From sequence record OZ035799.1: a stretch of DNA of 64,000 bases. One strand, 5' to 3'. The stretch is from Justusliebigvirus alia. The position numbers and the translations under genes are program-made. Numbering within the stretch: the first letter of the stretch is position 1; every line of letters begins with the position of its first letter. Below are positions 60,140 through 63,910 of the stretch, piece by piece. The notes beneath the pieces were generated by a model. It was not told the origin of the DNA. It saw only the letters and a program-made list of their open reading frames with translations, and did not search any database.

Positions 60140-61300
60140 TTAGTAAGAACGACCACCAAACACATACTCTGTGTAGTTTTTACGTTCTTTGTTTTTAATA
60201 ACAACTTCAATGTTGTTGCCTTTATCATCGGTGAACACAAAGTGATAACCGTCACCACCCATTGTACGGATGTGTTTTTCATCATACGTCAGCAAGATAC
60301 GGTCTACACCCCAGTAGTAGTCACCTTCTTCATCTTTGTCTTCTACTGTAACGACCCCTTCCATTTCAGGAAGATGCTCTTCTCCTAGCTTATGGTCTAC
60401 AGCTACAACATAACGATTACCGCTAAACAAACCCTGTGCTGTCATACCGTCAATATCGGTATCTGCCGAAACATCTCCTGTACGATCTACACCGTTGACT
60501 TTCAGAAGTTTAACTTCTTTTGCAGCATAGCGGTGTTCAGTAATACTGATACCCATTAATGCAAGTGCATCAGAGAATTTGTCATTAGGGTAACGGTTAA
60601 GTTCTTCTACTAATGACTGAACAATATCAAAGTTCAAGTCCACGGACAGATTATAAAGCGTTTCAAAATCTGGTAAAAAGGCTTTGTTCTCCAGATTTTT
60701 AGCCAGATAGTCATCCATAGTAGCTTTAGGTAGTTTCTTATAGCTAAAGCTGTAGAAAATACGGCTAGGGCGATTACGCAAAAATTCTGATACATAACCA
60801 TCATTTTTAGTCAATACAAACAGCTTGTCATAGCCACCAACACCATCCAGCAGGGTAAGCAAACCATCCTGTGCATCTTTTTCAGCATACAGTTTATCAA
60901 ATTCATCGATCATAATCATCACAGGTTGTGTGATTTTAGACATAAAATTGATAAAGCCTTCACCATTAAAAGCACTACCGATAGAAATAGTAGGAATACC
61001 CATTTCACGAAGAGCAGAAGACAGCATTTTAGCTTGCAAAGTTTTACCGCTACCCTTCGTACCCTCAAGGAGAACACCTGTGTTTTTACCTTTACGGCTA
61101 AGGAACGTCTTGATAATACGTTCTGATTTATCATCAGTATCACCGTATGTTACTGAAGGGACTTCCATATCGTTTTTAGGATACAGGAAGAACTCACCAC
61201 TTTGAGTAACACCTACACCAAAAGTTCCTGCTGGAATTTCTTCAATATCTGTGCCAGACTTCTGACGCAGGAAGATTTGATTGCCGAATACTGTAAACAT
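60140..61300 (-). CDS. AAA+ ATPase
   Basis: Walker A GTKGSGKT, Walker B VMIMIDEFD, sensor-1-like VLTKN, Arg-finger-like RNRPSR. Confidence 0.55.
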   Translation of the reverse strand: MFTVFGNQIFLRQKSGTDIEEIPAGTFGVGVTQSGEFFLYPKNDMEVPSVTYGDTDDKSERIIKTFLSRKGKNTGVLLEGTKGSGKTLQAKMLSSALREMGIPTISIGSAFNGEGFINFMSKITQPVMIMIDEFDKLYAEKDAQDGLLTLLDGVGGYDKLFVLTKNDGYVSEFLRNRPSRIFYSFSYKKLPKATMDDYLAKNLENKAFLPDFETLYNLSVDLNFDIVQSLVEELNRYPNDKFSDALALMGISITEHRYAAKEVKLLKVNGVDRTGDVSADTDIDGMTAQGLFSGNRYVVAVDHKLGEEHLPEMEGVVTVEDKDEEGDYYWGVDRILLTYDEKHIRTMGGDGYHFVFTDDKGNNIEVVIKNKERKNYTEYVFGGRSY

Positions 61301-61320: not shown

Positions 61321-61791
61321 TTAGTCAGATTCCCAAATGTTGTCTTTCTTAATCCACATTCGTTGATTATCTGAACCTCTATAACGTTTCGTTGTTGGTT
61401 GATTCATATCATACTTACCATCTATCACTATGTCAACCAGTTTTTTAATTTTTTCTGGAATTTCTTCAAAAAGATATCCTGTATATAAGACAATATCTTT
61501 TTTGTTTCCAAAACAATCTCTTACCTTTTCAAGAACATACTCTACAGTGTCAATGTTCTCTTTGTCAAGAGGTTCACCACCTAAAACGGTTAATCCTTTA
61601 ATGAAAGGTCGAGATAAATCTTTCAAGATAAGATCTAATGTTTCAGTAGTGAACTCTTGTCCGTAGTTATACGACCAGGCTTTCTGGTTAAAGCAGCCAC
61701 GGCAACCGTGGCTACAACCGCTCACCCACAAAGAGCATCTTACACCGTCACCGTTGAGCATGTCAACAGGTTCATATCCGGCGTAATTCAA
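61321..61791 (-). CDS. nrdG: Anaerobic ribonucleotide reductase activating protein (radical SAM)
   Basis: Cys cluster CSLWVSGCSHGCRGC (CxxxCxxC) near the N-terminus, ~156 aa, directly downstream of and overlapping nrdD. Confidence 0.8.
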   Translation of the reverse strand: MNYAGYEPVDMLNGDGVRCSLWVSGCSHGCRGCFNQKAWSYNYGQEFTTETLDLILKDLSRPFIKGLTVLGGEPLDKENIDTVEYVLEKVRDCFGNKKDIVLYTGYLFEEIPEKIKKLVDIVIDGKYDMNQPTTKRYRGSDNQRMWIKKDNIWESD

Positions 61792-62729
61792 AAATGTTTC
61801 TCCCTTTCTAATACTTCTTGCATTTTACCTTTATTATAAGGGCGAGAGTTAGGGGCAGAAAGGTATCCTGACACTCTTCTGATTACAGATATAGATTCTT
61901 CCTCATGATTGCCACAACTTGGACACTCGAAGCCTTTAGCTGTTGCCTTAAATTCACCATGAAAACCACATTTGAAACACTGATCTACAGGTTGGTTCAC
62001 GCCAAAATAAGGAATTTTGTTGTAGGCATAATCTACAAGAGTTTCCAGTGCTTGCAAGTTATTTTTAAGGTTTGGTGTTTCTACATAACCTATGTTCCCA
62101 CCATTACTGATTTGTGCAAAACCTTCCTCATAATCCCACTTTTGGAACGGGGTAGTGTGCATCCACACAGGTTGATGGAAAGAGTTTGTCAAGTAGTCAC
62201 GATCAATAGAACCTGGATAGCGATCATTTAATGCTTTGGCAAATTTATAGCACAAGGATTCTGCTGGTGTTCCATACAAACTAAAAGCTAAACCAGAACG
62301 TTCTTTAAATGTGCCACAGATATCCTTCATATATTGAAGGATGTTTTTACCCATTGCTTTTGGATTGGTGTTACCTGGGTATAAAATCTCCATAGCTTCT
62401 GCTAAACCTACATAACCGATACTAATAGAGGCATAACCACCTTCGAATAGCTTACCAATCTCTTCATTAGCTTCTAGTCGAGCTAAAGCCCCTTCCATAA
62501 ACAATGTAGGGTTTTGAGATGCTTTGGTATGTCTAATACGGTTAACACGTAGTATATGTGCCTTATACGCCATCTCCATATGTTGTTCCAACAGTTCAGT
62601 AAATAAGATGCCCTTTTCACGGGACTCTGCTGCAATGATAGGTAAGTTTAAAGAAACCACGCCTAAGTTGAAACGACCATCATATTTTTCACCTTGCTCT
62701 GTTGCATAGTATGACAAGAAACTTCTACA
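61788..62729 (-). CDS. nrdD: Anaerobic ribonucleoside-triphosphate reductase, exon 2
   Basis: Glycyl-radical motif RRVSGYL and C-terminal Zn ribbon CFKCGFHG...CPSCG. The ORF-track N-terminus MALRATLNIM is intron-derived; the exon probably starts at the CRSFLS codon. Confidence 0.8.
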   Translation of the reverse strand, partial: CRSFLSYYATEQGEKYDGRFNLGVVSLNLPIIAAESREKGILFTELLEQHMEMAYKAHILRVNRIRHTKASQNPTLFMEGALARLEANEEIGKLFEGGYASISIGYVGLAEAMEILYPGNTNPKAMGKNILQYMKDICGTFKERSGLAFSLYGTPAESLCYKFAKALNDRYPGSIDRDYLTNSFHQPVWMHTTPFQKWDYEEGFAQISNGGNIGYVETPNLKNNLQALETLVDYAYNKIPYFGVNQPVDQCFKCGFHGEFKATAKGFECPSCGNHEEESISVIRRVSGYLSAPNSRPYNKGKMQEVLEREKHF

Positions 62730-63009
62730 CATTATGTTCAAAGTGGCTCGCAAGGCCACTCCCGCACCATTACGTGCTGCTGCATGTCACCATGCAGATC
62801 AGACTATATCTTCATGCTTAAAGCATGTCTACCATTTGGGGTGTCATAGGCTTACACCCTACGCTGCTACATTCATCACAGCTAGTCGTTAGGCATTTCG
62901 TAATAGTACCCCCCTTCTTCTGTGTTGGGAGTTCTGTTACGTTTAGCACGGGATTGTCTCGTTGAGAGTTCCCCCGTTTAGGCAGATTTTACATGAGCAG
63001 TTATAGTTT
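62730..63009 (-). ncRNA. Group I self-splicing intron in nrdD (~280 nt, no internal ORF)
   Basis: Minus-strand sequence contains the conserved core elements in order: P-like AAACGGGGGAAC, Q-like ACAATCCCGTGC, R CCTAACGACTAGC, S AAGATATAGTCTG. 5' exon ends in U, intron ends in G. Reading frame is interrupted by a stop just inside the intron. Confidence 0.75.
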
Positions 63010-63867
63010 ACCCATGCTTGTGACGCGACCATCTGAAGATCCTGTAACTTCTTTGTTTAAAGGTACAGAGATAAAATCAGGATAAATGCGTTCAGCACAA
63101 CACTCCATTGCCAGTTGCTTCAAATCATAGTTTGGATCGCCAGCTTTCATGTTAACACCATCTTCCAAGAAGAAGATAACTTTAGGAAACACAGGAGTTA
63201 CCCTATCTTTTCCTAATCCTTGTTTGTGCACCATTAGGTAGTTTTTAGTGATCATTCTACCAAAAGCAGAGGTATCCAAACCTAAACTAATTGTTATAAA
63301 AGGTGACTGACCATTTACACTCATTAGAGTGTTCACTTGGTAGATTAAAGTTTGCATTGCATCATAGACCTGTTTATCTACCATACGCATAGCAATATCA
63401 TAATCACCAACATCAGCATATATTTTATTAAAACTTGCTTTAACGTATTGACTAAGCCCAGTATCAACATGTGCACAAGTTTGTCCACCATATTGGCTAG
63501 AAGCTACTGCTTGAATAATTTGAGTTAGGACAGTAGTCGCTACACCGATAGATTTTGGTTTTTCAATATGTGCATTACCAATACGGAAACCGTTCTCAAG
63601 CATATCTTGGTAATTTACCAGGCAACAATTAGTTAAAGGTGAGAGTAAATAATCTAAATCGTGGATGTGACCATACCCACTTTTATGCCATTCTGCCAGA
63701 TCTTCCGGTAAAATATGGGTCATTGCCATGTGCTTGCTTAGGATACCTGCTAGTAAATCTCGGTGAGTATTAACAATCATTGCAGGTTTGTTTGCATTTT
63801 CACGAGTAAATTCTTCGGATGTTTGTTCGAGGAATCCGATTACATCCTCATATAGTTTTTGGGTCAT
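63010..63867 (-). CDS. nrdD: Anaerobic ribonucleoside-triphosphate reductase, exon 1
   Basis: 288 aa N-terminal part ending ...DGRVTSMG; joined to exon 2 gives a ~602 aa NrdD. RBS GGAGGA before the ATG at 63867. Confidence 0.8.
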
Positions 63868-63875
63868 TAATCCTC

Positions 63876-63910
63876 CGTGGAAAATAAAAGCCAGCTTAAT
63901 GCTGGCTTTA
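63876..63910 (-). terminator. Hairpin terminator/attenuator immediately upstream of the nrdD RBS
   Basis: AAAGCCAGC-ATTA-AGCTGGCTTT followed by TATTTTCC, then RBS GGAGGA. Confidence 0.5.

Follow-up and report, generated by a model that had tools for sequence, protein, structure and literature searches.

A compact group I intron lacking an ORF in the nrdD gene of a phi92-like coliphage, with relatives at the same site that carry an endonuclease gene

Introns described in phage nrdD genes

The closest described relative of the element analyzed here is found in phage phi92 (NC_023693 / FR775895), a member of the same genus, where an intron 99.3% identical in sequence and also devoid of an ORF occupies the same insertion site. 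The 2012 record of phi92 includes a two-piece "spliced variant" CDS (gp192A) with exactly the junction that we find below, and the phi92 gene spliced at the junction that we deduced is an exact match to the deposited protein (CCF23320.1 / UniProt I7IDU2). The rV5 paper mentions introns only for the terminase, and this site of nrdD is not mentioned in the 2013 survey of phage RNR or in the 2010 reviews of T4. The documented prior knowledge of the intron is the GenBank annotation of phi92, and the intron was therefore already known rather than being a new occurrence. The splice is annotated in phi92, whereas it is unannotated in the record studied here (Justusliebigvirus alia, OZ035770), of which we analyzed a stretch of 64 kb, hereafter called the window.

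The second system of reference is the nrdD (sunY) intron of T4, which resides in the same host gene and belongs to the same intron sequence family. It is inserted at codon 179/180 (QAYE/YEVNT, the slash marking the insertion point; 2488-3520 of the T4 locus, L006), around 110 codons upstream of the site in the window. Its endonuclease, I-TevII, is of the GIY-YIG type and is encoded downstream of P9, in contrast with the HNH gene found in P6 of the relatives of the window intron. The nrdD genes of phage JSE (Krischvirus) and of Vibrio phages F99 and 184E37.1 are interrupted at the same MG/C site as that of the window, by ORF-containing introns with a homologous core (80% identity for JSE and 72% for the Vibrio members) and a homologous HNH ORF in P6 (around 51% amino acid identity).

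The insert separates the two exons of nrdD next to the finger-loop cysteine

The window comes from a phi92-like coliphage of the Stephanstirmvirinae and carries the nrdD-nrdG operon on the minus strand. A preliminary description of this DNA had proposed that nrdD is broken between DGRVTSMG and CRSFLSYY by an intron at positions 62730-63009, and both the intron-less alleles and a check of the reading frame gave exactly this interval. The locus is organized as follows:

63010-63867, minus strand: nrdD exon 1, codons 1-286, ending in ...SSDGRVTSMG (from the ORF list)
62730-63009, minus strand: group I intron of 280 nt, IA-type layout, without an endonuclease ORF (from Rfam RF00028, intron-less alleles and covariation)
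61788-62729, minus strand: nrdD exon 2, starting with CRSFLSYY..., whose first codon is the conserved finger-loop Cys
61321-61791, minus strand: nrdG (activase), downstream in the nrdD operon and overlapping the end of nrdD (from the ORF list and the annotation of the homologues in phi92, VEcB and muut)

Exon 1 ends with ...AGC ATG GGT at 63010 and the intron starts with AAACUAUAA at 63009. The intron ends with ...AUAAUG, its terminal G being at 62730, and exon 2 starts with TGT AGA AGT TTC at 62729. Read on from exon 1, the frame runs into a stop at the third codon of the intron (GGT AAA CTA TAA). Excising 62730-63009 results in a NrdD of 599 aa that agrees at 597 residues with the NrdD of the sister phage muut, whose gene is not interrupted. 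In muut and in the original Escherichia phage alia record (NC_052655), nrdD has no gap and reads ...ATGGGT/TGCCGT... at the predicted junction. Since the intron-less alleles are fused at that very point, the boundaries of the excised segment are exact and do not derive from a model. The spliced product also aligns without gaps across the junction with the sequence of the T4 NrdD structure (1h78, E 5e-164), and in all of these comparisons (muut, NC_052655 and 1h78) precise excision restores an intact host gene.

A codon count on the T4 locus and the alignment with 1h78 show that the Cys following the junction corresponds to residue 290 of T4 NrdD, which we take to be the finger-loop cysteine at which catalysis is initiated. 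The intron lies between this Cys and the Met-Gly that precedes it in the finger loop. Homing elements typically insert at the most conserved stretch of a gene with an essential function. In all RNR classes, the radical chemistry begins at the finger-loop cysteine, and the Met of this loop is mechanistically important too (PMC4493059).

The insert has the structure of a group I intron

The preliminary description had proposed a covariance search as a check, and the Rfam model RF00028 matched positions 62780-63055 (minus strand) over its full length (1-253), with 72.3 bits relative to a gathering score of 50 (E 2e-16). It was the single Rfam match in the whole window. We derived the secondary structure by hand, and it comprises P1, P3, P4, P5, P6/6a/6b, P7, P7.1, P7.2, P8, P9, P9.1, and P9.2, but no P2. 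Its elements, all on the minus strand, are:

63010-63016: 5' strand of P1, CAUGGGU, the last 7 nt of exon 1, pairing with the guide GCUCAUG
63002-63006: candidate guide for P10, CUAUA, which can pair with UGUAG at the start of exon 2 over 5 nt (by eye, and by a duplex energy of -3.1 kcal/mol)
62992-62998: internal guide sequence GCUCAUG, 3' strand of P1, with 7/7 pairs to the exon sequence CAUGGGU and a U.G wobble at the splice site
62948-62986: 5' strand of P3 (62981-62986), P4 (62972-62977 with 62948-62953) and P5 hairpin (62957-62967) (covariation helices 3-5)
62893-62947: P6 and its long P6a/P6b extension (from aligning it to the introns of VEcB, SYGMH1 and JSE that contain the ORF)
62883-62887: 5' strand of P7, GACUA, within element R, pairing with UAGUC at 62802-62806
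62839-62882: P7.1 hairpin (62863-62882) and P7.2 hairpin (62839-62859), peripheral elements of subgroup IA (covariation helices 9-10)
62802-62833: 3' strand of P3 (62828-62833), P8 hairpin (62813-62827), and J8/7 with the 3' strand of P7, AAGAUAUAGUC (element S, 62802-62812)
62730-62797: P9 with a GUGA tetraloop (62780-62797), P9.1 (62764-62777), P9.2 (62743-62759) and the 3' tail up to the terminal G (covariation helices 12-15 and MFE fold)

We assessed this structure by covariation in a MAFFT alignment of ten family members, from which the ORF and the distal P6 insert were trimmed. Standard pairs make up 94.7% of the cells in the ten sequences, and only 30-45% when the partners are slid by 1-3 columns. 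Compensatory pairs amount to 31 of 76, relative to 13.4±2.3 in column shuffles, none of the 500 shuffles being as high. An unconstrained RNAfold MFE prediction recovered all the helices outside the pseudoknot (-85 kcal/mol, z -2.9). The fit to a group I secondary structure, on which the preliminary description had made its proposal depend, is thus seen both in the covariation of every core helix and in the MFE fold.

The individual helices behave consistently. P1 has 7 bp (-6.8 kcal/mol) and is fully paired in the 10 sequences; phage JSE shows a compensatory change between exon and guide (GAUGGGU/GCUCAUC vs CAUGGGU/GCUCAUG in the window). P3 and P4 are paired at 100%, with 3 and 2 compensatory pairs, as is P8, where 5 of the 6 pairs are compensatory. 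P6a shows compensatory changes in JSE and F99. The R and S elements reported earlier are indeed present and form P7: element R, CCUAACGACUAGC, contains the 5' strand of P7 at 62883-62887 and pairs with element S as GACUA/UAGUC, with 100% pairing, four invariant pairs and one compensatory pair in the ten sequences. P7.1 and P7.2, placed between the 5' strand of P7 and the 3' strand of P3, are 98% paired and have 4 and 2 compensatory pairs. These extra hairpins place the intron in subgroup IA (phage type), and we take it to be IA2-like, IA2 being the class presumed for the T4 sunY intron. The fifth pair of P9.2 (C-G) is found only in the lineage of the window, phi92 and VEcB, and is a C.A mismatch in the other nine rows (columns 275/283), including PD06 of the same genus.

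The core helices P3 to P8, the P3/P7 pseudoknot, the U.G pair in P1 and the terminal G at 62730 are all present, the splice-site U and the terminal G having been pointed out before. Judged from its sequence, the 280-nt insert in nrdD is a compact ORF-less group I intron, delimited to the base.

Proposed splicing and alternative fates of the interrupted gene

We infer splicing itself from structure and conservation. If the standard chemistry of group I introns applies, the nrdD-nrdG pre-mRNA would fold into P1 to P9.2, and the guide GCUCAUG would pair with the last seven bases of exon 1, leaving a U.G wobble at the splice site. The P7 pseudoknot would hold the G-binding site, and a free guanosine bound there would attack after the splice-site U. 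The freed 3'-OH of exon 1 would then attack behind the terminal G of the intron (62730), so that ...SMG and CRSF... become joined in an enzyme of 599 aa. Ribosomes entering the unspliced RNA would stop three codons into the intron. We consider it very probable that nrdD holds a splicing group I intron which is a decayed mobile element, its endonuclease gene lost and its ability to home by itself gone. The element is well supported as a remnant of a mobile intron, and is an ordinary member of a textbook class.

The ribozyme could instead be dead and nrdD made as two polypeptides (288 aa, and 323 aa from a GTG at 62759) working as a split enzyme. The phi92 record also lists each half of nrdD as a CDS of its own and places a ribosome-binding site within the intron, the C-terminal CDS being annotated from the GGGAG-GTG in the P9.2 stretch. 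In the window, the GTG-initiated ORF (61788-62759) is in frame with exon 2, has GGGAG upstream and starts inside P9.2. Split RNR that are not spliced do exist in phages, as exemplified by the mobE-split NrdA of Aeromonas phage Aeh1 (PMC3653736, PMC7344957). However, we regard a split NrdD as highly improbable here, given that the core helices, the splice-site U.G pair and the terminal G of the intron are all intact, with compensatory selection, and that the internal GTG is not conserved, being GUA in JSE. The break would also lie within the finger loop, a single residue ahead of the catalytic Cys, and nine foreign residues would be added there. The exons are around 99% identical to functional intron-less alleles.

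Should the interrupted nrdD be a decaying pseudogene, with an insert devoid of function, one could expect the endonuclease gene of the intron to be already lost, as it is. Furthermore, the phage may not need nrdD when grown aerobically in the laboratory. Yet both exons are open and encode 597 of 599 residues as in the intact gene of the sister phage, and covariation shows that the RNA structure is maintained. The same ORF-less intron is found with intact exons in 12 listed records (11 without the duplicate entry of phi92), in addition to the six that have an independent deletion. This makes a pseudogene extremely improbable and leaves splicing of the intron as our preferred reading.

Loss of the endonuclease gene

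The ORF list contains no ORF of the size of an endonuclease inside 62730-63009, so that the intron does not encode its own homing endonuclease and is compact, as first described. In contrast, its relatives have the same intron in a form of 762-771 nt with an ORF of 169 aa in the P6 loop (VEcB, arall, phiWec187 and SD2 of Justusliebigvirus; nieznany and nepoznato of Phapecoctavirus; and many rV5-like Vequintavirus phages, among them SYGMH1, JEP1 and HMD-6). These introns are inserted at the same SMG/CRSF site, their ribozyme core is 99% to 90% identical to that of the window, and both forms have the exon-2 signature TGTAGAAG in common. The 169-aa ORF is annotated as a homing endonuclease in several records. 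It has HNH_3 and I-HmuI NUMOD-like matches below the Pfam cut-offs in VEcB and SYGMH1, the NUMOD-like match of JSE being the only one that passes (32.3 bits vs a cut-off of 27). At the gathering threshold, Rfam gave no match for the ORF-containing versions (loci L002, L004, L005, L015, and L009, which is F99), presumably due to the insert of around 500 nt, and we placed these introns in the family by alignment to the ORF-less forms.

The comparison with VEcB locates the missing segment. VEcB reads ...GAAGGGGGGTACT[GATATG...507-nt ORF...GAGTTCT]GTTACG, in RNA form ...GUAACAGAACUCCCAACACAGAAGAAGGGGGGUACU[GAUAUG...ORF...GAGUUCU]GUUACG..., and the window has identical flanks without the bracketed part, the deletion junction being at 62899-62908. 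The P6 extension of the window keeps a hairpin, CUCCC...GGGGGG, over the Shine-Dalgarno sequence of the ORF (62909-62917), and this retained 30-nt stretch is identical in sequence to VEcB and SYGMH1 until 6 nt before the ATG. Because the scar with hairpin and Shine-Dalgarno is kept and the flanks are those of VEcB, the comparison identifies the window intron as secondarily ORF-less, by deletion of the HNH endonuclease gene, and not primitive. The 290-nt variant of the intron (PD06, ECGD1, and others) still holds around 17 nt of the 3' end of the ORF, which identifies the PD06-type intron, on comparison, as a second, independent deletion. An endonuclease provided by a co-infecting relative might still mobilize the ORF-less intron.

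The window and phi92 copies differ only slightly in this region. The window intron has 280 nt and that of phi92 279 nt, the former having an extra G in the G-run of P6b, and P6a is CUAUUACG in the window, with a C.A mismatch caused by a G-to-A change, where phi92 has CUGUUACG. Both differences lie in the peripheral scar, outside the core.

Some members of the family are compact in another way. Avunavirus phage 18-1-2, three uncultivated phage contigs and the T4 core have an unrelated P6a hairpin of 14-16 nt, and the short P6a of T4 is unlike the long P6a/P6b of the window. These forms probably show the ancestral layout, and since short-P6 forms without a scar exist, 18-1-2 and the uncultivated contigs having them at the same site, an ORF-less ancestor would have existed deeper in the family. 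One could extend this to the window and propose that its intron is ancestrally ORF-less, the HNH gene having invaded later in VEcB-type phages. We find this highly improbable, since the window keeps a hairpin and a Shine-Dalgarno that serve only the ORF in VEcB and SYGMH1, the PD06-type intron retains coding sequence from the 3' end of the ORF, and the intron sequence is around 99% identical between ORF-containing and ORF-less forms. Deletion of the endonuclease gene remains our reading for the window.

Polymorphism within the genus, and signs of horizontal spread and co-conversion

We surveyed the 54 Justusliebigvirus GenBank records that are covered by a 1-kb intron-less query, with the following result:

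Intron-less allele: 31 of 54 records
ORF-less intron of 279/280 nt: 12 of 54 records
ORF-less intron of 290 nt: 6 of 54 records
ORF-containing intron: 5 of 54 records

The genus is thus polymorphic for the presence of the intron (31 intron-less and 23 intron-carrying records), even within the species Justusliebigvirus alia, where the site is empty in NC_052655 and occupied in OZ035770. The 279/280-nt forms are at least 98.9% identical. The locus provides a snapshot of the homing cycle within one genus, with empty sites, endonuclease-carrying introns, and two independent derivatives that have lost the endonuclease. This makes it a convenient system to study the gain and decay of introns, although it does not change what is known of group I introns.

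The intron family is also present at the MG/C site in Vequintavirinae, Phapecoctavirus, Avunavirus, the T4-like phage JSE and Vibrio phages. Relative to the lineage of the window, Phapecoctavirus nieznany is 99% identical in the intron, 99.4% in the HNH ORF (compared with VEcB) and 81% in NrdD, and the corresponding values for Vequintavirus SYGMH1 are 90%, 91% (compared with VEcB) and 67%. Intron and endonuclease are thus far better conserved across genera than nrdD, and this sequence comparison indicates that the intron has spread horizontally between genera, including by very recent transfer.

The flanking exons bear the traces of such events. Exon 2 of nieznany matches the window exactly over its first 38 nt, after which the identity drops to around 76%, and exon 1 diverges starting at position -7. 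In Justusliebigvirus, the intron is linked to no other exon differences than the synonymous ones at positions +3, +4 and +6 (TGC CGT to TGT AGA), which are in complete linkage with it. TGT AGA (62724-62729 in the window) is found in every intron-carrying coliphage allele, i.e., in Justusliebigvirus, Phapecoctavirus, Vequintavirus, Avunavirus, JSE and three UViGs, and TGC CGT is the start of exon 2 in every intron-less allele, including that of T4. Vibrio phage F99 differs from the coliphage lineage in that its exon 2 starts with TGCCGA and can form a strong canonical P10 of 8 bp (-11.4 kcal/mol).

The TGT AGA codons could represent a co-conversion tract, immunity of the endonuclease site or tuning of P10. 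The P10 duplex is weak, with an energy of -3.1 kcal/mol for the intron-linked exon 2 and -3.9 kcal/mol for the intron-less sequence (in another register), which gives the former no clear advantage, and co-conversion from a donor is the simpler reading of the linked codon changes relative to a strengthening of P10. We found no intron-less alleles with TGTAGA, which would be the mark of precise intron loss, every single-piece match having at least 3 mismatches. Neither of the exact intron-less junctions, sought with both codon types in IMG/VR, was found. Presence/absence polymorphism and co-converted sequence in the adjoining exon are what is expected of a homing intron, and the traces match those that endonuclease-driven homing with short, 3'-biased co-conversion, followed by loss of the endonuclease, would be expected to leave.

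Relation to the nrdD intron of T4

The preliminary description had compared the insert with the nrdD introns of T-even phages. This comparison stands for the core and the guide, which are homologous, but not for the insertion site: the site of the window matches T4 codons 289/290, between which T4 has no interruption, its own intron being at codon 179/180. The two introns are 69.7% identical over 184 nt (blastn) and around 72% over 226 aligned positions. With the members of the family, the T4 core shares 70-77% identity, the same degree of closeness as between the Vibrio phage member and the coliphage ones, and the T4 intron has the best Rfam score of the set that we compared (105 bits). The guide GCUCAUG is identical in T4 and in the window, and P7.1/P7.2 and the GUGA loop of P9 are shared, whereas the partner of the guide differs (UAUGAGU in T4 vs CAUGGGU in the window). 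The exon contexts are partly alike beyond P1, with CAAGCTTATGAGT before and ATGAAGT after the T4 insertion point, and CAAGCATGGGT and TGTAGAAGT at the respective positions in the window.

One may tentatively propose, although we hold it to be rather unlikely, that T4 sunY and the introns of the MG/C site form one ribozyme lineage that occupies two sites of nrdD around 110 codons apart, an ORF-less ancestor having moved by RNA pairing (reverse splicing, reverse transcription, and recombination). Under this hypothesis, the unrelated endonuclease genes (GIY-YIG after P9, HNH in P6) must have been acquired after the split of the lineage, and a switch of sites guided by RNA pairing would fit, because the guide would have remained unchanged and the endonucleases would have been acquired independently. 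We know of no direct evidence for the reverse-splicing route in phages. If the hypothesis is true, the same lineage has since crossed at least three unrelated groups of coliphages (Stephanstirmvirinae, Vequintavirinae, and Krischvirus).

The host phage had also been described as differing from T-even phages in head and tail type. It does belong to the Stephanstirmvirinae and not to the Straboviridae, but phi92-like phages are presumably still contractile-tailed myoviruses.

Annotation and surroundings of the nrdD locus

In most GenBank records of phi92-like and rV5-like phages, nrdD is split into two genes or listed under hypothetical proteins, and the recognition of the intron corrects this annotation to a single enzyme of 599 aa. 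Other records of the family have particularities of their own. F99 (L009) has an additional HNH endonuclease gene directly upstream of nrdD (1-241), and in its annotation exon 2 is divided into two abutting CDSs (2288/2289). In Escherichia phage 18-1-2 (L007, 1729-2981), exon 2 is annotated as two pieces around 360 nt apart (2242-2600). Rfam identified no second intron in this gap, which could correspond to a second intervening sequence missed by Rfam, or to an assembly or frameshift problem in a partial scaffold. Four records labeled "Campylobacter phage" (MG065639, MG065645, MG065656, and MG065689; host C. jejuni) are around 99% identical to phi92-like coliphages across nrdD and have the same intron, and further records with this label match rV5-like phages. 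The Campylobacter host labels of these records look doubtful.

Beside nrdG, the phi92 record has a "hypothetical tRNA" antisense to the AAA-ATPase gene (4850-4937 of the phi92 locus, L001), and neither ARAGORN nor the Rfam tRNA model found a tRNA at the equivalent place of the window (around 60573-60660, plus strand). A scan for promoters and terminators around the nrdD locus was of little information, with 11 promoter-like sites relative to 7.8±2.7 in shuffles. Just upstream of the ribosome-binding site of nrdD there is a terminator-like hairpin (63887-63909, minus strand), of 9 bp followed by a T-run, which suggests that nrdD-nrdG may be transcribed at least partly separately from the upstream gene.
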